A DNA stretch of 37,108 nucleotides from a virus: positions 1-37,108 of IMG/VR virus record IMGVR_UViG_3300025890_000007. One strand, written 5' to 3'. A program made the translations under genes and the position numbers. Numbering within the stretch: the stretch's first letter is position 1; each line of letters begins with the position of its first letter. The notes under the pieces were generated by a model that did no database searches, was not told the DNA's origin, and saw only the letters and a program-made list of their open reading frames with translations. This document shows, in pieces, positions 100 to 37,108 of the stretch.

Positions 100-277
100 G
101 ACTCATTTGCCGCTACAAGAATTGGTGAATTCGTTAGGAATTTACAGAGAGGATACAGACGATGTTACAAAAACGATGAAGTGGCCAGAGCGGGAATCGA
201 ACCTGCGACACACGGATTTTCAGTCGTTAGAGGAAAAGATAGATAAACTGTTACAGATAGTACAGAAAGATCAGTAA
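2..277 (+). CDS. int: Integrase 3' end (bases 2-99 duplicate 37011-37108)
   Basis: Same frame as 36333. It carries HLLRHERLSTTELYL (conserved His plus catalytic Tyr), then a ~60-aa tail ending at TAA 275-277. The track ORF 17-277 is an edge artefact using an internal TTG. Confidence 0.9.
   Translation, partial: VATELLSGNMNPVHVQHLLRHERLSTTELYLNTTHLPLQELVNSLGIYREDTDDVTKTMKWPERESNLRHTDFQSLEEKIDKLLQIVQKDQ
182..225 (-). other. attP core candidate: 3' half of a tRNA-Phe(GAA), from anticodon loop to discriminator base
   Basis: The reverse complement reads GA-CTGAAAA-TCCGT-GTGTC-GCAGG-TTCGATT-CCCGC-TCTGGCC-A. That is an anticodon loop with GAA, the 3' anticodon stem, a GTGTC variable loop as in E. 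coli tRNA-Phe, a T arm with the TTCGATT loop, the acceptor 3' strand and A73. The upstream bases (AACGA) do not pair with TCCGT, so this is a fragment and not a gene. The T stem has one A:C mismatch. Confidence 0.8.
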
Positions 278-21611: not shown

Positions 21612-22052
21612 CTATGCTCCTATAAAATATTGTGACCCAATCTGTTGCCCCCCTTGGCGCTTCAGAAACTTATTCACTCTTTCAAAATCAGACTCCGGTT
21701 TCCGGAAAGTTCCATAGAAAAACGGTAGTTTCACTGACTGTGCTACGGACTTCGCTACTTTGTAGAGTTCAAAGGCTGTTCTCGTTTTTCTGTGCTCCGG
21801 ATTGACGTAGACATAGTATTCATAAAGTGCCGCATCATTCGTGTACCAGTGGCTTTCGACTCGGAGACCCATGTGTCCCAAGAGTTTTTCCTCTTCAGTC
21901 TTCTTCAGAACTATGTGGTGCTGAATACTGTCTGTTAGAAACGAAATACATTTCTCTTCATCCATCTTCCCGAAGGGAGCCATTTCGACATACATGTTCC
22001 GTAAATCTGCCATCAAGGCATCTACATCGGCTAAAGTACACTTTTCAATCAT
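21612..22052 (-). CDS. GNAT-fold-like protein (possible N-acetyltransferase)
   Basis: 146 aa. YEYYVYVNPEHRKTRTAFELYKVAKSVA resembles GNAT motif A, but the R/Q-x-x-G-x-G/A loop is degenerate. Confidence 0.4.
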   Translation of the reverse strand: MIEKCTLADVDALMADLRNMYVEMAPFGKMDEEKCISFLTDSIQHHIVLKKTEEEKLLGHMGLRVESHWYTNDAALYEYYVYVNPEHRKTRTAFELYKVAKSVAQSVKLPFFYGTFRKPESDFERVNKFLKRQGGQQIGSQYFIGA

Positions 22053-22516
22053 CGGATGGCTGAAGGACTCCGGACGGTGGAAGTCAGAATGCTCTGCTGA
22101 TAGTTTCTGCGAATTCCCTGTTTTCTCGGATCTCGTTCCACTTCAATCTGTTTCAACAAGGACGGAAGCATTTCGTTGATCTGGTCTAACTCTGCGCCAC
22201 TTTGTTGCATCGTGGTCTGGTACTGCTGAAGGGTCGGTTCGTATGCCTTGTAATTGGCCTGAAGACCCTCGTAGGTCGATAACAGTGCGTTGTAAGCATC
22301 CAGACGAGCCTGAGTCCTGTTTGATTGAAAAGCATCGTAGGCACTCCGAACCTGGGGTTCAAAGGTAACTGCTTCATCGTAGGCACTTCGATACTGAGGA
22401 TAGTCCTGCTGATACGACTGCTGTGCCGAAATTCCTTGTTGTCGGACTGTTTCAAAACGTTGTCTCAGTTCCTCCACACGGGCGACGGGGTTGTATCCTC
22501 TGGCCATGCTCTCCAA
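22049..22516 (-). CDS. Gln/Tyr-rich coiled-coil protein (unknown function)
   Basis: 155 aa, overlapping the terL 3' end by 52 nt. The C-terminus is RRNYQQSILTS. Confidence 0.45.
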   Translation of the reverse strand: MESMARGYNPVARVEELRQRFETVRQQGISAQQSYQQDYPQYRSAYDEAVTFEPQVRSAYDAFQSNRTQARLDAYNALLSTYEGLQANYKAYEPTLQQYQTTMQQSGAELDQINEMLPSLLKQIEVERDPRKQGIRRNYQQSILTSTVRSPSAIR

Positions 22517-23949
22517 TGGTTGAAAGGGTCAAAAGTGCGATCTGACAAAGATCCCTCGGCTACCTCTGCTCTGGGCCTCCAGGTCCGGATTGTGGCATAC
22601 CGAAGAGATTGAACGGCATAACGGGTTGCGGACATCAGGTCATCATACTTTCTGACAATCTTTCCGTCCTTGCGATGATAGATTCTGTATTCCTTGTACC
22701 AATCCTGCAAATGATCAAAGACCTTCAACCGTCCTGTTTGAAACCTTGTGATCATCGCCATAATTCCTGGTTCGACAGCAATTCCGCCTTCCGGATTGTG
22801 AAAGTGGGAACCCAGGAAATTGACTCCGGCTCTGCGATACTGATCGGCTAAAGCGTGTCCACTGCCCTTGTCATGAATCGAACCGTCATGAGGCCAAGCT
22901 ACCGGAATCCAGTTTCCTCGGAGTTTGATTGCTTCAGCATGTTGCAACATTGCTGCACCGGACTGACAGTAACTGTCATAGAGATAAGCCGTGTCTGTGT
23001 CACGGTCCCAAGCTACCCAGATTGCTGCAGTCGGATGGTCAAAACCGAAGTCGATTCCACAGATCCTTGGCCAGTGTTCCGGAATTTCAAAAGCTCTGAC
23101 CGAAAAGGATTCTTCTGCAATCGGAAAGACTTGTCCGCTTCCAAGTACCGGAATTCCCTTGGATCTCATTTGACGCTCATGCAACGGTAACGCTGAGAGA
23201 ATCTCCTGTTTTACATCTTCAGATAGATGCGGAGCATCGTCCCAGGAAGCAGTCACCAGTTGCTGCGAAGGCTTTCGATCATTCAAAAAGTTCTGGACAA
23301 CTCCCGTTACTCCCCGTTCCGGTGTGAACGTCAGATAGACCGGACCCCCGTTTTTTAAAGAAGCTCGAAGAGATTGCGAGTAAATGTCCTGCGGTGGTTC
23401 CTCGTCCATCCAAACTACGTCTACCGCTACTCCCATCCAGGCAGAAGCACCACTGTCATATGATTTGAACTGAAGTCTGCTCTTCCCATTGACATGCTTG
23501 ACCAACGCCATGCCGATGCCGTTGGGAACCCCAGGGTTTCTTTCTGTCGATAGAATCAATTCTCTCGGAATTGCTGCGGTTCCCTGTGCATCCGGATCTC
23601 CTGGAGTTCCGAGAAGTTCGCACTGAACAATGTCCCTTGTTGCATAGTGGCTCTGTCCTGCGGCCCAGGCTTGAATCGGTCTGTCGAACCTCCAGCCATC
23701 CCACCACTCCGGATAGAGTCCCGTTAGATGATATGCCATCTCTGCTGCACCACAGAACGTTTTCCCGACCTTGTTCCCAGCCATCAGACAACGTTGCCGA
23801 GCCTGATTCCCAGAATCGTCCCTGCTCCGGTGAAACTCTGCCTGATACCGATACGGTTCGTAAGATAATAGCTTGTTGAACTTCTTGGCTTCCTCGTACT
23901 CCTTCTGGAGTTCTAAAGCCTCAACTACTATTTTTTCTTTTTCAAGCAT
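22465..23949 (-). CDS. terL: Terminase large subunit
   Basis: 494 aa. It has a Walker A-like motif (MAGNKVGKT), a Walker B-like motif (VVWMDEEP) and a C-terminal nuclease-like region (CGIDFGFDHPTA...WPHDG). Confidence 0.85.
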   Translation of the reverse strand: MLEKEKIVVEALELQKEYEEAKKFNKLLSYEPYRYQAEFHRSRDDSGNQARQRCLMAGNKVGKTFCGAAEMAYHLTGLYPEWWDGWRFDRPIQAWAAGQSHYATRDIVQCELLGTPGDPDAQGTAAIPRELILSTERNPGVPNGIGMALVKHVNGKSRLQFKSYDSGASAWMGVAVDVVWMDEEPPQDIYSQSLRASLKNGGPVYLTFTPERGVTGVVQNFLNDRKPSQQLVTASWDDAPHLSEDVKQEILSALPLHERQMRSKGIPVLGSGQVFPIAEESFSVRAFEIPEHWPRICGIDFGFDHPTAAIWVAWDRDTDTAYLYDSYCQSGAAMLQHAEAIKLRGNWIPVAWPHDGSIHDKGSGHALADQYRRAGVNFLGSHFHNPEGGIAVEPGIMAMITRFQTGRLKVFDHLQDWYKEYRIYHRKDGKIVRKYDDLMSATRYAVQSLRYATIRTWRPRAEVAEGSLSDRTFDPFNHWRAWPEDTTPSPVWRN

Positions 23950-24035
23950 TTACCAGCCATCTTGCACTTGCTCGGTGACGGACACGTTGCACACGGTTTG
24001 AACGCTTTCTTTGACGTTTTCTTTTTTCCGTACAT
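23928..24035 (-). CDS. 35-aa lysine-rich Cys4 micro-protein (not in the ORF track)
   Basis: Hand translation gives MYGKKKTSKKAFKPCATCPSPSKCKMAGKCLKKKK. Its ATG shares one base with the upstream stop (TAATG at 24035), and its 3' end overlaps the terL start by 22 nt. Confidence 0.4.
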   Translation of the reverse strand: MYGKKKTSKKAFKPCATCPSPSKCKMAGKCLKKKK

Positions 24036-24757
24036 TAGACTCCGAATAAACTAAGTTGCACTGGTCCCCCAGACCATGTCTTGGGAGCATTAAAAGACTC
24101 AATCCGATCCATCAGGACTACTGCTCTGGTTATTAAAGAATTTGGCTTAAAGGCCACACTCTCCCATTTTGGTACTGTCATGTTGCGAGCTACCATTGTG
24201 CTGTCTGCAGAGGCCAAAGGAACTTTTGTGAAAATCTCTGGGTTCAAACATCGAAGGCCATGAACTTTAATAGAAATCTTTCCGTCTACACAAAGGCAAT
24301 CCATTGCCTGATTCATCCTCTCCCAGTATTTTTCAGTGTTTGGGTTCAAACCTTCGGTAGTTCCGATACAGATCCTTGGGAACTCTTCTGCTAACCAAGA
24401 TAACTTCTCTAGACTTTCATCAAAGTGCCAAACTGGAGTCCCTCCTCGTAGTGGACAATTGCGGATCAAATCATTGTTCTGCTGTTCTGTCCCTCCAATG
24501 ACATCTGGGATGATCCAAAAATCTAGAGACGGGTCTTTGAGATCTTCAATGAACTGATAATACTTTTCCCAATTGACCGATTTCCCAGAATTCCAAAAAC
24601 TATAAGCCCCATTATCGAGCATCCAAGATTGACAAAATTCTTGAACAATCGGTAACTGAGACCGGACTGCATACGAAACACAAGCATGTTTGCCATGAAG
24701 AATTCGGGCTACCTGTTCATTGGGACAAGCTAACGGGCCTCCGTGGTAGTGAATCAT
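24035..24757 (-). CDS. dpdA: DpdA-like DNA guanine transglycosylase (TGT superfamily)
   Basis: 240 aa. WMLDNGAYSFW resembles the TGT DSGGFQ/DSGAYQ substrate-Asp motif. IIPDVIGG, RICIGTTEG, KVHGLRC and LASADSTMVARN follow the spacing I recall for phage DpdA and archaeal TGT cores. Adjacency to a YhhQ-like gene supports the call. Confidence 0.55.
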   Translation of the reverse strand: MIHYHGGPLACPNEQVARILHGKHACVSYAVRSQLPIVQEFCQSWMLDNGAYSFWNSGKSVNWEKYYQFIEDLKDPSLDFWIIPDVIGGTEQQNNDLIRNCPLRGGTPVWHFDESLEKLSWLAEEFPRICIGTTEGLNPNTEKYWERMNQAMDCLCVDGKISIKVHGLRCLNPEIFTKVPLASADSTMVARNMTVPKWESVAFKPNSLITRAVVLMDRIESFNAPKTWSGGPVQLSLFGV

Positions 24758-25223
24758 AACGATAGATCAAATAAGACCAAAGAAGACCTCCTGCCCATTT
24801 TGCGATGAATTGACCTAAGATGATCAACCATGGAAATCCACCAAAGGCTAGTACCGGAAAAATCAAAGAGTCACTAAAAGAACCGACTGCATTGGAAGCG
24901 TTTGACTTCACCAAGTACTTTTCGTTTTTTAGAAAATGATAAACCCAACTATCCAGAGCACTACTGACTCCGAAGGCTGCCGCACTGGCTACTGCTATCT
25001 GAAGAGCCTCCAAATTCAACAAGACGGTCAACCCAGATCCACTAAAGATCAACAAGGCCATGTTCCGTTTTAAATTCTGTTTCCACTTCTCATGGAGATG
25101 ATCCCGTAGTGATAAATCAAGACCGATAAAAAAGAACGCATTGAAGATCGATGCAGCAGGACCGAAGTACAGAATGCTCAGATTCGCTGAGACAATGGCT
25201 ACTAGATAAATGGCAACGATCAC
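24717..25223 (-). CDS. yhhQ: YhhQ/VUT-family (DUF165) queuosine-precursor transporter-like membrane protein
   Basis: 168 aa, polytopic. IVSANLSILYFG...FFFIGLDLSLRD compares with E. coli YhhQ ITSSNYLVQ...FIFLATDLTVR. SNASNAVGSFSDSLIFPVLAFGG compares with TASTLFGNVSDTLAFFFIAF. It uses a GTG start in a GTGA overlap with the upstream micro-ORF. Confidence 0.7.
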   Translation of the reverse strand: MIVAIYLVAIVSANLSILYFGPAASIFNAFFFIGLDLSLRDHLHEKWKQNLKRNMALLIFSGSGLTVLLNLEALQIAVASAAAFGVSSALDSWVYHFLKNEKYLVKSNASNAVGSFSDSLIFPVLAFGGFPWLIILGQFIAKWAGGLLWSYLIYRYDSLPRRPVSLSQ

Positions 25224-25387
25224 TTCTTCCTTTTCACGGTTTGTTCAGACTGACCTTCTTCCCCTGGTACTCTGCCACTCCAACATCTCCGATAACGTTC
25301 ACAAAGAATTCGATAATTACAGTCATTACAAAATCTGAAGAGACGCACCTTACAACACCTTGAACTATTGATTATCGGTTTGCCCAT
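25220..25387 (-). CDS. 55-aa Cys-rich small protein (zinc-binding-like), not in the ORF track
   Basis: Hand translation gives MGKPIINSSRCCKVRLFRFCNDCNYRILCERYRRCWSGRVPGEEGQSEQTVKRKK. A GGGGG run lies 3 nt upstream of the ATG, and the stop overlaps the transporter start. Confidence 0.45.
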   Translation of the reverse strand: MGKPIINSSRCCKVRLFRFCNDCNYRILCERYRRCWSGRVPGEEGQSEQTVKRKK

Positions 25388-25470
25388 GGACCCCCAACAG
25401 ATTCGCTCTGCCGAAAAGATGGCTCGACTACCGAGTGCGGACCGTGGTGTCCAACAAAGCCCATGAACGT

Positions 25471-25956
25471 TTACGTCTCTACAATCTCTGCATCCTCTAT
25501 CGATGACAGTCCGAGTAACTTCTCGGCTAACTCGTTGCCTAACTTCTTCCTCGCTTCCTCTTCAATCTCCTTCGGTGACCGCTTGATCACTTCCTGAGTG
25601 ATGTGCGATTCGGTCTTCGGCTTGAACCCTGCTCGGTCCAGTAAATCTCTGGTTGCATTGAAACGAGTCTTCTCATCCTCTGCAGTGAACGCCAGATCAA
25701 CCATGTTCTGTAACGCATCCACCGCAATCTCTCCGAGATTCGCTCGGACCTGCAATTCCACCAGTTCCCCATATTTCCTGTTCATCTCACGGATCGTATT
25801 GGCCGGAAGGCCGGACTTGTCCGATAACTTCTTGACTGTCAAACCTGCCGCTTTGCCCTGGGACCAGAGAGCACCCATCGGAGCACACTGAATCTTTCCG
25901 AACTTCTCCTTGATCTCAATGTCTCTCTGCTTGACTCGGTGTCTGGGGTCTTTCAT
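25471..25956 (-). CDS. terS: Terminase small subunit candidate
   Basis: HTH-like segment (LTVKKLSDKSGLPANTIREM), followed by ATRDLLDRAGFKP, which is typical of small terminases. It is the first gene of the late operon. The start is set at ATG 25956 because of AAGGAG 5 nt upstream; the track start at 25974 is a GTG. Confidence 0.55.
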   Translation of the reverse strand: MKDPRHRVKQRDIEIKEKFGKIQCAPMGALWSQGKAAGLTVKKLSDKSGLPANTIREMNRKYGELVELQVRANLGEIAVDALQNMVDLAFTAEDEKTRFNATRDLLDRAGFKPKTESHITQEVIKRSPKEIEEEARKKLGNELAEKLLGLSSIEDAEIVET

Positions 25957-26451
25957 GTTTCTCCTTTTGATCACTTTATATCAGTTTTGATCAGACCGTC
26001 TAGTAAAAACTCCCCCCGTGTGGGGGAAGGGGATGACCTACCACAGACCAAGGGCCGATTTTGTGCCCCCCATACCTTTTGAACCAGGGAGAAAACGAGG
26101 ACCAAATCGGTGGTTTAATTGCGATTCGATGGTTAAAAGTAGCTATATGTTCACTAATATACGATATGGAACTCATGAAACAGAAACAGCAGTCAATAAA
26201 ATCAGTGACTTATAAGTTCTGATAAGGTTATCAGTGATAAAAAACGAAAGCTATCGGAAGGTACTGGAAGGCATCGGGCAGGTTCAGGAGGTCAAGTTTT
26301 GTTCCGTAAAATTGCTTTTCCCAAACCTTCTAAAACTCAAACTCCAACCTGATACCCAAACTATCATATACGATATACGATATAACCTGAGCAAATGCTT
26401 GGACCTTGAGCAAAAGACCAAAAAAAAATGATCAATAATGATCAAAAAGTA

Positions 26452-27354: not shown

Positions 27355-28056
27355 ATGAGTAAGCAACTAATCAAATTACTAGCAGAAACTGGAAACACGA
27401 AACTGGACAAGACCAGAACTGATCAGATCTTGATAGCCGGATTATCCCTTGCTCCTGCCATGGAATCAGGAACTGAACTTTGTCCTAGTCGATCAGAAGG
27501 TTGTACTTCCGTATGTCTATTTGACCAGGGAAGAGGAAAGTTTTCTAACGTGAGACAGGCAAGGATCAAGAAAGCTCAATTGTTTTTAGAGAACAGAAGA
27601 TTATTTCTAAGCACTCTTGAATCAGAGCTTGATGCTATTGAAAGGAAAGCAGAGAAACAAGGGAAAACTCCTTTTGTTCGGTTGAATGTTCTTTCTGATG
27701 TTGCCTGGGAACTAGTAGCACCAAGTCTATTTAAACGAAAGATCAGGTTTTACGATTACACAAAACGGTTTGATCGAATGAACCGATATCTAACAGGAAA
27801 GTTCCCTTGGAACTATGATTTGATCTTTTCAAGATCAGAGGAAAACGAGAGCTTCTGTCTAGATGTTTTGTCTTCCGGTGGTGTGGTCAACGTAGTCTGG
27901 AGAACAAGAGAGAGTATTCCTGATACCTGGTTTGGTTATCACGTGATTAAAGAACAAGACGACACAGATGTTTGGTGGCTAGGGAAAGTCTCACAAGTTG
28001 GCGGAGCATTTGCCAAGGGATCTGCAAAACTAGATCAAACTGGGTTTGTCTTATGA
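27355..28056 (+). CDS. GP88-family-like phage protein (unknown function)
   Basis: AGAGGA SD. NTKLDKT...LSLAPAMESGTELCPSRSEGCTSVCLFDQGRGKFSNV...VRLNVLSDV follows the N-terminal Cys-cluster pattern I recall for Pfam GP88. Confidence 0.45.
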   Translation: MSKQLIKLLAETGNTKLDKTRTDQILIAGLSLAPAMESGTELCPSRSEGCTSVCLFDQGRGKFSNVRQARIKKAQLFLENRRLFLSTLESELDAIERKAEKQGKTPFVRLNVLSDVAWELVAPSLFKRKIRFYDYTKRFDRMNRYLTGKFPWNYDLIFSRSEENESFCLDVLSSGGVVNVVWRTRESIPDTWFGYHVIKEQDDTDVWWLGKVSQVGGAFAKGSAKLDQTGFVL

Positions 28057-36336: not shown

Positions 36337-37108
36337 TTGATCAATATATCGACTATCTACGGACCTATCGTTCTCAGAGGACTGTTGATACCTATCGACC
36401 TCAATTAGCCCGATGGCAAGCCTTCTCGACATCCAATTCCATTACTTACGAAACTTTTAAGGACTTTGTCGATCATCTCCGGTCCGAAGGTCTATCCGAT
36501 GGTTCAATCAATTCTCATTTACGATCACTGAAGGCTTATCTGAACTGGTGTCATAAATATCTGAATCATCCGAAGTATCATGTGCCGATGCTGAAAGTGA
36601 ACAAAAAGATTCCGAAGGTCTGGACAACTCATCAACTGGAGATCATCGAAACCATTCTCAACCATAGAGCACAACGATCACGGAGATATCAAATACTCAG
36701 GCGAACCCATTACATGCTTCGGTACACCGGAATGCGAGCAGGAGAACTGTTCCATTTAAATTGGACAGATATCGGATCTGGAATCCGTATTGAAGGAAAA
36801 GACGATTGGACAACAAAGAATAAACAAGACTCCATTCTCCCGATACATCCGAAGCTACTGGAGTTTTTACAAATCGAAAAACATGCGGGGGAAACTAATT
36901 ACCTAGATCACCATTTTAAAGAACTGAGTCATTTAACGTATTCGATGAGAAAGTTTCAGAAGTCTATCGATTTAGATGGACCGAAACCACTCCATGGTTA
37001 TAGAGCCAGTGTTGCTACTGAACTATTGTCCGGAAATATGAATCCGGTACACGTGCAACATCTGCTACGACATGAACGTTTATCGACTACAGAACTCTAT
37101 CTGAATAC
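36333..37108 (+). CDS. int: Tyrosine recombinase / phage integrase, 5' part (runs off the window end and continues at 100-277; about 317 aa in total)
   Basis: Hand translation from ATG 36333 (ATGA overlap with the repressor stop) is open to the window end. It is missing from the ORF track because no stop is reached. It has an N-terminal SAM-like core-binding segment (YIDYLRTYRSQRTVDTYRPQLARW...SINSHLRSLKAYLNWC), an Arg box (RYTGMRAGELFHLNWTDI) and H-x-x-R (HGYRASVAT). Confidence 0.9.
   Translation, partial: MIDQYIDYLRTYRSQRTVDTYRPQLARWQAFSTSNSITYETFKDFVDHLRSEGLSDGSINSHLRSLKAYLNWCHKYLNHPKYHVPMLKVNKKIPKVWTTHQLEIIETILNHRAQRSRRYQILRRTHYMLRYTGMRAGELFHLNWTDIGSGIRIEGKDDWTTKNKQDSILPIHPKLLEFLQIEKHAGETNYLDHHFKELSHLTYSMRKFQKSIDLDGPKPLHGYRASVATELLSGNMNPVHVQHLLRHERLSTTELYLN
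37010..37108. repeat. Terminal overlap copy 2 (identical to 1-99)
   Basis: Same comparison. The integrase reading frame is continuous across the junction (36333 and 17 fall in the same frame once 37009 is subtracted). Confidence 0.95.

Follow-up and report, generated by a model that had tools for sequence, protein, structure and literature searches.

A predicted 7-deazaguanine salvage cassette of a VUT-family transporter and a DpdA-type transglycosylase between the terminase genes of a marine temperate podovirus

Phages that encode the guanine transglycosylase DpdA together with none of the genes for preQ0 or G+ synthesis are the closest described relatives of the locus studied here. Hutinet et al. 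(2019) listed 76 such phages and proposed that these "DpdA-only" viruses take up their precursor or draw it from the host pool (PMC6884629); an earlier review had noted that the presence of yhhQ inside dpd clusters suggests that salvaged preQ0 can enter DNA (PMC5699537). Supplementary Data 1 of the survey places phages 7-11, BTP1, SPN3UB, SfI, Athena1 and PEAT2 in the DpdA-only group (group 3), and in Clostridium phage CDKM15, halophage eHP-6 and Sinorhizobium phage phiLM21 adjacent genes for DpdA and the transporter YhhQ are the sole deazaguanine genes (PMC6884629). DpdA-only phages, phage YhhQ homologues and preQ0 salvage into DNA are already in the literature. We describe here IMG/VR virus record IMGVR_UViG_3300025890_000007, analysed over its whole length of 37,108 nucleotides (nt; "the window"), in which a short gene of the YhhQ-containing VUT family overlaps a DpdA-type gene between the genes for the small and large terminase subunits, terS and terL (Table 1). 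A sequence-only reading of this DNA had proposed that the phage obtains a 7-deazaguanine base by import or from the host pool and installs it in its own DNA, which is reasonable and is the standard hypothesis applied to a new phage; the same has been published for DpdA-only phages (PMC6884629).

The Seuratvirus CAjan carries, like the window, a homologous DpdA and a YhhQ-like protein (159 amino acids, aa), and its DpdA is required for the exchange of guanine for preQ0 that gives dPreQ0 in DNA (PMC7544227). Host-derived preQ0 is still incorporated, at an approximately 12-fold lower level, in CAjan folE and queC mutants (PMC7544227). Unlike the window phage, CAjan also encodes FolE, QueD, QueE and QueC; it modifies about 25-32% of its G, and its DpdA, at 306 aa, is the larger enzyme and shares no more than about 22% identity with that of the window. 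With the bacterial bDpdA of Salmonella Montevideo and with tRNA-guanine transglycosylases (TGTs), the window protein has in common the predicted TIM-barrel fold, an Asp in the (S/A)DS context of the nucleophile, and a candidate general acid/base Asp with an aromatic residue at +4 (D48...Y52 in the window, D95...F99 in bDpdA). It differs from them in being much smaller, in having neither a Zn site nor the DpdA-specific insertions, and in matching none of their profiles; the Salmonella Montevideo Dpd system has DpdB and DpdC as partners, whereas the window DpdA has none.

We consider it probable that the pair is an accessory cassette, complete in itself, which equips the phage DNA with a 7-deazaguanine base that is imported or supplied by the host. 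On the minus strand the order is terS, a stretch of 247 nt, the VUT gene, the DpdA gene, a 35-aa open reading frame (ORF) and terL. The DpdA start lies inside the VUT gene, giving an overlap of 41 nt (24717..24757); the DpdA stop codon TAA overlaps the ATG of the 35-aa ORF (TAATG), which itself shares 22 nt with the beginning of terL (start at 23949). Such overlapping and abutting frames suggest coupled translation. ORFs, coordinates, the 41-nt overlap and the GTGA and TAATG junctions are as the sequence-only reading had given them, and the position of the pair between terS and terL, within the late gene string, is confirmed by family matches of both terminase genes (phrog_2538; Terminase_6N and Terminase_6C). 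Its picture of one tightly coupled string stands for the overlaps among DpdA, the 35-aa ORF and terL and falls for the GTGA junction, as the 55-aa partner ORF there is probably no gene.

Homology assigns the 240-aa protein to the DpdA type. It matches phrog_887, named "queuine tRNA-ribosyltransferase" (E=1.3e-53), and aligns with the validated CAjan DpdA across both catalytic motifs (hhalign 97.5%, E=6.8e-12; phmmer 1.7e-6). BLASTP gives 34% identity to the DpdA of Salmonella phage 7-11 (E=4e-37), and identity amounts to 44.9% for Vibrio phage Athena1, about 44% for the P22-like phages BTP1 and SPN3UB, 42.5% for SfI and 35% for the DpdA of Pectobacterium phage PEAT2. With the DpdA-only phages of Hutinet group 3, the window has in common both the short DpdA clade (~235-260 aa) and the lack of preQ0/G+ synthesis genes. 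The length of the protein, which had been called unusual, is ordinary: more than 740 relatives measure about 235-275 aa, and the 7-11 enzyme has 234 aa.

The motifs LDNGAY, VHGL and SADST, from which a DpdA-like enzyme had been proposed, coincide with columns that do not vary among the 36 sequences of a family alignment (D48 N49 G50, H166 L168 and A184 D185 S186), and together with the phrog_887 match and the homology to the CAjan and 7-11 enzymes they bear the assignment out. Three Asp residues, D48, D85 and D185, are invariant in this alignment. LDNGAY (D48) and SADST (D185) align in hhalign with LDSGAFS and SCDSS of CAjan DpdA. Mutagenesis of bDpdA has defined the roles of an Asp nucleophile and a general acid/base (PMC10164549), and by analogy with its D95 and D256, D48, with its aromatic residue at +4, is likely the general acid/base and D185 likely the nucleophile. 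D85, in the motif IPDV, is a candidate for the base-binding Asp (D130 of bDpdA, D156 of TGT), an equivalence that is uncertain: hhalign puts a Ser of CAjan opposite D85, and the CAjan Asp falls three residues further on, opposite a Gly of the window protein.

The AlphaFold2 (AF2) model of the DpdA protein is a (beta/alpha)8 TIM barrel with alternating strands and helices (pLDDT 91, pTM 0.87), and the chain ends soon after the barrel. Among its neighbours in BFVD are many phage "queuine tRNA-ribosyltransferases" (1e-10 to 1e-6). In the PDB, Foldseek ranks Cap10 first (9ntn, E=8e-5, TMq 0.64) and murine TGT second (E=1.8e-4), with generic TIM barrels close behind. Cap10 handles deazaguanylated CdnD in type IV CBASS (cyclic-oligonucleotide-based antiphage signalling system). 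Its first rank could indicate that the enzyme attaches deazaguanine to a target other than nucleic acid, for example a protein, or that it interferes with a CBASS-like type IV host defence. We regard this as extremely improbable, as the margin of Cap10 over TGT and the generic barrels is small, no Cap9/QueC-like partner is present, and sequence homology points to phage DpdAs.

Action on RNA, that is on host or phage tRNA instead of DNA, would agree with the TGT-superfamily fold and with the name "queuine tRNA-ribosyltransferase" used by RefSeq and PHROGs. That name, however, is a legacy label, and the protein is a bare 240-aa barrel that has neither the Zn subdomain nor the C-terminal tRNA-binding parts of TGTs. 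Its homologues in CAjan and in phage 7-11 are, respectively, needed for DNA modification and associated with dADG (2'-deoxy-7-amido-7-deazaguanosine) in DNA, and the phage has no tRNA gene of its own (none that is complete by ARAGORN across the window). An RNA target is therefore very unlikely in our view, and DNA remains the substrate that we favour.

The upstream gene encodes a membrane protein of the VUT family. Its product scores 55.1 bits against Pfam Vut_1 (PF02592; gathering score 27.2, E=1.5e-14), a match confined to residues 72-154 in the C-terminal half, and matches phrog_4899 over its full length (E=4e-33). The AF2 model (pLDDT 95.6) has six helices, at residues 2-20, 24-46, 48-69, 71-97, 103-127 and 132-158. 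A profile of the family aligns with CAjan gp41, annotated as "putative preQ0 transporter" (hhalign 96%, E=3e-9), and the protein aligns with E. coli YhhQ over the whole core (residues 4-147 against 18-191, hhalign 77%, E=2e-5), a remote similarity of 26% over the hhalign alignment; a profile search against PDB sequences gave nothing meaningful. E. coli YhhQ/QPTR (COG1738) belongs to the same Pfam family and shares the six-helix core, and its 221 aa compare with 168 aa in the window protein, which has shorter loops and termini. This shortness, too, had been taken as unusual and is not. In a set of 5.8 billion proteins all homologues carry PF02592, and more than 200 relatives are 154-202 aa long, mostly ~160-170 aa; among isolates, the CAjan transporter gp41 has 159 aa and PEAT2 gp18 has 155 aa.

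The VUT assignment consequently holds, by profile as well as by structure model, and the claim that the protein carries the signature blocks of YhhQ is overstated, given the hhalign value for YhhQ and scores below the equivalog cutoffs. The protein is best described, from its sequence, as a divergent VUT-family member and not as a demonstrated YhhQ ortholog. Characterised VUT/COG1738 members transport preQ0 and preQ1 (PMC11130926; PMC5699537). For the window protein, which scores below the YhhQ equivalog cutoffs, the genomic association with DpdA suggests that it may transport preQ0, preQ1 or queuine.

The ends of the window are identical over 99 nt (1-99 = 37010-37108), so that it represents a complete circular genome of ~37.0 kb. 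Searches of whole-genome ORFs with Pfam, PHROGs and NCBIfam found no FolE, QueD, QueE, QueC, QueF, Gat-QueC or ArcS, and phmmer with the FolE, QueD, QueC and QueE proteins of CAjan had no match in stop-to-stop ORFs of at least 40 aa across the genome. The absence of folE, queD, queE, queC and queF, noted earlier from the letters, can now be stated for the complete genome, and with no preQ0 genes in a complete circular genome, provision by salvage or host pool only is a fair reading.

The two genes also occur together far beyond this phage. For the linkage counts ORFs were taken stop to stop and the 80 best loci per query were used, which biases the counts to relatives; IMG/VR contigs are moreover not independent, and each of the two families has at least 600 matches in IMG/VR. 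A DpdA homologue was present in 59 of the 80 IMG/VR loci that best match VUT, and in 57 it was adjacent and on the same strand, with 12 pairs in the order VUT-then-DpdA and 45 in the order DpdA-then-VUT. Conversely, 50 of the 80 loci best matching DpdA had an adjacent VUT gene. Homologues of FolE, QueD, QueE or QueC lay within 10 kb in 6 of ~245 loci. Annotated adjacent pairs are found in isolates as well: Pectobacterium phage PEAT2 has VUT-then-DpdA with a 31-nt overlap, and Acinetobacter phage AB3P2 has a VUT/DpdA pair in its early region. The occurrence of both gene orders, for instance in PEAT2 and AB3P2, argues for a functional and not an accidental linkage. By protein match alone, the VUT protein also has relatives in Flyfo siphovirus Tbat1_6 and E. 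coli phage ECO111 5-P. These counts, the two isolates and the tables of Hutinet et al. (2019) remove the impression of a rare arrangement.

Hutinet et al. (2019) found YhhQ homologues to be uncorrelated with any DpdA group (PMC6884629); the VUT genes of PEAT2 and CAjan are missed in their table. As a modest new point, viral metagenomes show a far tighter linkage of solo DpdA with a short VUT gene than could be gathered from the 2019 survey. It could alternatively be argued that the transporter is mainly an auxiliary metabolic gene, which boosts the host's supply of queuosine precursors for tRNA and phage translation, that DpdA takes its base from this common pool, and that there is no dedicated pair. 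VUT is kept where DpdA is deleted, several phage loci have VUT and no adjacent DpdA, and phages with preQ0 genes and no DpdA have been suggested to boost Q in tRNA (PMC6884629). Against this stand the adjacent, same-strand and often overlapping arrangement of the pair, which either gene order can show and which 50-57 of the 80 best loci have, as well as a cassette boundary exactly at the VUT ribosome-binding site and the joint movement of both genes. We judge a mainly metabolic role to be unlikely and retain the reading of a modification cassette.

This boundary is seen in relatives of the window phage. The identical 240-aa DpdA occurs on at least 23 contigs from several samples, SRR1699484 and a number of ENA and JGI samples being among its sources, and the layout terS...VUT-DpdA-terL recurs only within the phage's own lineage (contigs L003-L008, L030, L032, L033). 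In three of these contigs (L006-L008), whose DpdA is 100% identical, homology to the window starts ~13 nt upstream of the VUT GTG, at the VUT ribosome-binding site (window ~25224-25236, AAAGGAAGAAGTGA), and other genes stand upstream of the cassette, among them one for a DNA methylase, one for a DUF6378 protein and a Lys-rich ORF of 49 aa. Judged from these sequence comparisons, the site marks a mosaic recombination junction. In Pelagibacter phage Baldr, a late module of similar make-up has no VUT/DpdA pair. Since the upstream DNA is unrelated, DpdA is deleted in relatives and Baldr has no pair, we regard the pair as an accessory mosaic cassette. Within one phage lineage, variants with DpdA (L030/L032-like) and variants that have lost it (L033-L037-like) exist in nature.

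In other phages the VUT/DpdA pair belongs to early or to replication modules. PEAT2 shares the gene order of the window, with its pair beside a primase gene; the AB3P2 pair is in the early region, whereas that of the window is in the late operon of a marine temperate podovirus, between terS and terL; and phage 7-11 has DpdA alone, near nucleotide-metabolism genes. Modification at the time of packaging, as the sequence-only reading had it, is a reasonable suggestion from gene position for one lineage and no property of the system.

Taken as a working cassette, the pair would be transcribed with the late operon, from terS through VUT, DpdA and the small ORF to terL and onward. The six-helix VUT protein would insert in the host inner membrane and raise the pool of free 7-deazaguanine base, most likely preQ0 and possibly preQ1 or queuine, on top of the host-made supply. 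DpdA would then use the double-displacement chemistry of TGTs, with D185 as likely nucleophile and D48 as likely general acid/base, to swap guanines at some motif in the replicated double-stranded DNA of the phage for the deazaguanine base. The terminase would package this modified DNA, which would be partly protected from restriction in the next host.

Several results weigh against this reading, the first of them concerning the identity of the two proteins. The DpdA ORF has no sequence match in Pfam (TGT, PF01702), NCBIfam, PADLOC or the PDB; its family gives a null result in hhalign against E. coli Tgt (probability 0.8%), and the 36-sequence alignment holds no invariant or nearly invariant Cys for a structural Zn site. 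The link to TGTs comes from the predicted fold and from homology to phage DpdAs. CAjan DpdA, however, has no Pfam match itself and barely grazes the PADLOC DpdA profile (E=0.0013), and because this validated enzyme behaves alike, nulls against TGT and bDpdA profiles are uninformative for phage DpdAs. On the side of profiles and structures the TGT/DpdA claim is accordingly borne out in part: homology to phage DpdAs and a TGT-like barrel were found, and a match to a TGT, PADLOC or NCBIfam profile was not. For the transporter, scores remain below the NCBIfam equivalog cutoffs, with 39.3 against 50.95 bits for TIGR00697 and 21 against 252 bits for NF008406 (YhhQ).

A second group of results concerns the pairing and its effect. 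Among DpdA loci of prophages in 80 GTDB genomes, an adjacent VUT gene was present in 8 and clearly absent in 60; the prophages with solo DpdA belong to Acidobacteriota, Burkholderiales, Enterobacterales, Pseudomonas, Bacteroidota, CPR (candidate phyla radiation) and Planctomycetota (loci L167-L246 from GTDB, compared with L094-L166 from IMG/VR). The contrast between viral contigs (50/80) and prophages (8/80) may reflect preQ0 synthesis by the host. About 15 VUT loci in IMG/VR with room on both sides have no adjacent DpdA. Deletion of yhhQ in CAjan has no effect on modification, and the gene is dispensable (PMC7544227). DNA of phage 7-11 contains 50 dADG per 10^6 nt, or ~0.02% of G, and no modified base was found in the DpdA-only Mycobacterium phage Orion (PMC6884629). 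Heavy DNA modification is shown for no member of the short DpdA clade, and the only tested member of the solo-DpdA clade, phage 7-11, shows trace modification. Furthermore, two independent deletions of DpdA exist in relatives (L033; L034/L036), with flanks of 93-97% nt identity (compared with L032 5564-6268); one takes the greater part of the gene and the other virtually the whole, and VUT and terL are intact.

The trace of dADG in phage 7-11, the two deletions with their closely similar flanks and the late module of the related phage Baldr, which has no pair, would all fit a cassette that is real and nearly silent, yielding trace deazaguanine and little or no protection and drifting toward loss in this lineage. 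We hold this to be rather unlikely: none of 36 diverse homologues departs from the catalytic residues, at least 23 contigs from several samples encode the very same 240-aa protein, and co-inheritance of the transporter in most viral loci is hard to explain if the cassette is neutral. The functional cassette, with imported or host-supplied base, remains our preferred explanation.

The neighbouring sequence adds detail to this arrangement. The ATG of terS at 25956 is preceded by AAGGAG and the source contig calls terS as a 161-aa protein; this ATG is likely the true start, in preference to a GTG at 25974 that would lengthen the protein. The 247-nt stretch behind terS has a doubtful 55-aa ORF as its sole content. 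Although its TGA overlaps the GTG of VUT (GTGA), this ORF has no family match in Pfam or PHROGs and is uncalled in the source contig. We rejected it as a member of the coupled string for the latter reason and because the upstream DNA is unrelated elsewhere; it is probably a variable spacer upstream of the cassette and not a gene. The 35-aa ORF, wedged between DpdA and terL, is Lys-rich and has four Cys (KPCATCPSPSKCKMAGKC). It has no family assignment and has phmmer homologues in contigs L030 and L032-L036, where they are placed upstream of VUT; it may encode a small Zn-binding protein of the packaging region.

A scan for sigma-70 promoters across the terS-terL string gave no site beyond what shuffled sequence would yield, and convincing terminators are lacking in the string, where the one hairpin, behind terS, is weak (5 bp). 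A strong hairpin followed by a T-run was seen only ~35 nt upstream of terS, where it may take part in controlling the late operon. It recalls the antitermination-controlled late operon of lambdoid phages (pR'-tR'); no Q-like antiterminator was identified. Rfam at the gathering threshold detected no preQ1 or other riboswitch upstream of VUT or elsewhere in the window, and at E<=1 it had no match within 23800-26400.

Table 1. Features in and around the terS-terL interval of the window (nt positions)
Feature	Position	Strand	Basis
VUT/COG1738 (YhhQ-like) six-helix membrane protein, 168 aa, GTG start; predicted 7-deazaguanine base importer	24717..25223	-	Pfam, PHROGs, AF2, hhalign
DpdA-type (TGT-superfamily) guanine transglycosylase, "solo DpdA" clade, 240 aa, ATG start	24035..24757	-	phrog_887, hhalign, BLASTP, AF2
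35-aa Lys/Cys-rich small ORF, MYGKKKTSKKAFKPCATCPSPSKCKMAGKCLKKKK	23928..24035	-	sequence reading, phmmer
Doubtful 55-aa ORF upstream of VUT	25220..25387	-	ORF list
Small terminase subunit terS, 161 aa, first late-operon gene	25471..25956	-	phrog_2538, E=4.8e-12
Large terminase subunit terL, directly downstream of the cassette	22465..23949	-	Pfam Terminase_6N (E=8e-30) and Terminase_6C (E=1e-18)
Terminator-like GC hairpin with T-run, divergent intergenic region	26010..26029	-	consensus scan only, weak

The genome is that of a temperate podovirus, and identical or near-identical contigs stem from marine metagenomes. A tyrosine integrase gene spans the window junction (36.3 kb to 277, plus strand), and its 3' end overlaps a 45-nt 3' half of tRNA-Phe(GAA) (182..226, minus strand) that extends from the anticodon loop to the discriminator base; this half is probably the attP site and could serve to trace the host. 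The phage further encodes a CI-like S24 repressor, a leftward early operon (DUF3799 exonuclease, Erf, RusA and DUF3987 primase/helicase), a rightward cluster that includes a GP88-family protein, and a late operon with T7-like portal, capsid, tail tube A/B, internal virion proteins, M15 endolysin and tail fibres. By Pfam, PHROGs and NCBIfam, the rest of the genome holds structural, lysis, recombination, replication and regulatory genes only. Portal and TerL are 39-52% identical to proteins of Pelagibacter and Vibrio podoviruses, with 52% for TerL and its counterparts in Pelagibacter phage Baldr and in Vibrio phages. The GC content of 45% argues against a SAR11 host. GTDB genomes contain no close prophage relatives (identity of at most 47%, in very diverse phyla), and a near-identity DNA search with 22000-26000 had no match among 50,697 phage records.

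Two side observations concern other genes. Between terL and the portal gene lie a GNAT acetyltransferase-like gene with a weak Pfam match (E=3e-4) and a Gln-rich coiled-coil ORF (21612..22052 and 22049..22516, both on the minus strand); the gene pair is conserved in relatives L030-L037, and Baldr has a "putative acetyltransferase" at the equivalent place. Close to its N-terminus, the GP88-family protein (27355..28056, plus strand; PF17338, E=1e-33) has three Cys residues (C43, C50, C54) spaced as CX6CX3C. In ~9 other IMG/VR loci of the same layout, which are probably a single lineage, a homologue is encoded on the strand opposite to DpdA at a distance of 3-6 kb. We found no literature mention of the accession PF17338, and a functional link between GP88 and DpdA was set aside.

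Our data may bear on how phages at large obtain modified bases. The difference in linkage between viral metagenomes (50-57 of 80 loci) and prophages (8 of 80) is a testable refinement of the current picture. Tentatively, and with some doubt, we suggest that a short VUT protein and a solo DpdA constitute a dedicated mobile scavenging module and the main route by which environmental, especially aquatic, phages reach 7-deazaguanine modification. If this is true, such phages would import dissolved preQ0, preQ1 or queuine without making it, their evasion of restriction would be tied to an exogenous micronutrient pool, the published lack of correlation between phage YhhQ and DpdA groups would have to be revised, and the late-operon placement seen here would mean that modification is timed to packaging. 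If the cassette works, it would represent a minimal two-gene route to DNA hypermodification that dispenses with the four-enzyme preQ0 pathway, and it could be useful as a portable anti-restriction module. The protection of phage DNA would then depend on scavenged queuosine precursors, which would give this small gene pair ecological relevance.

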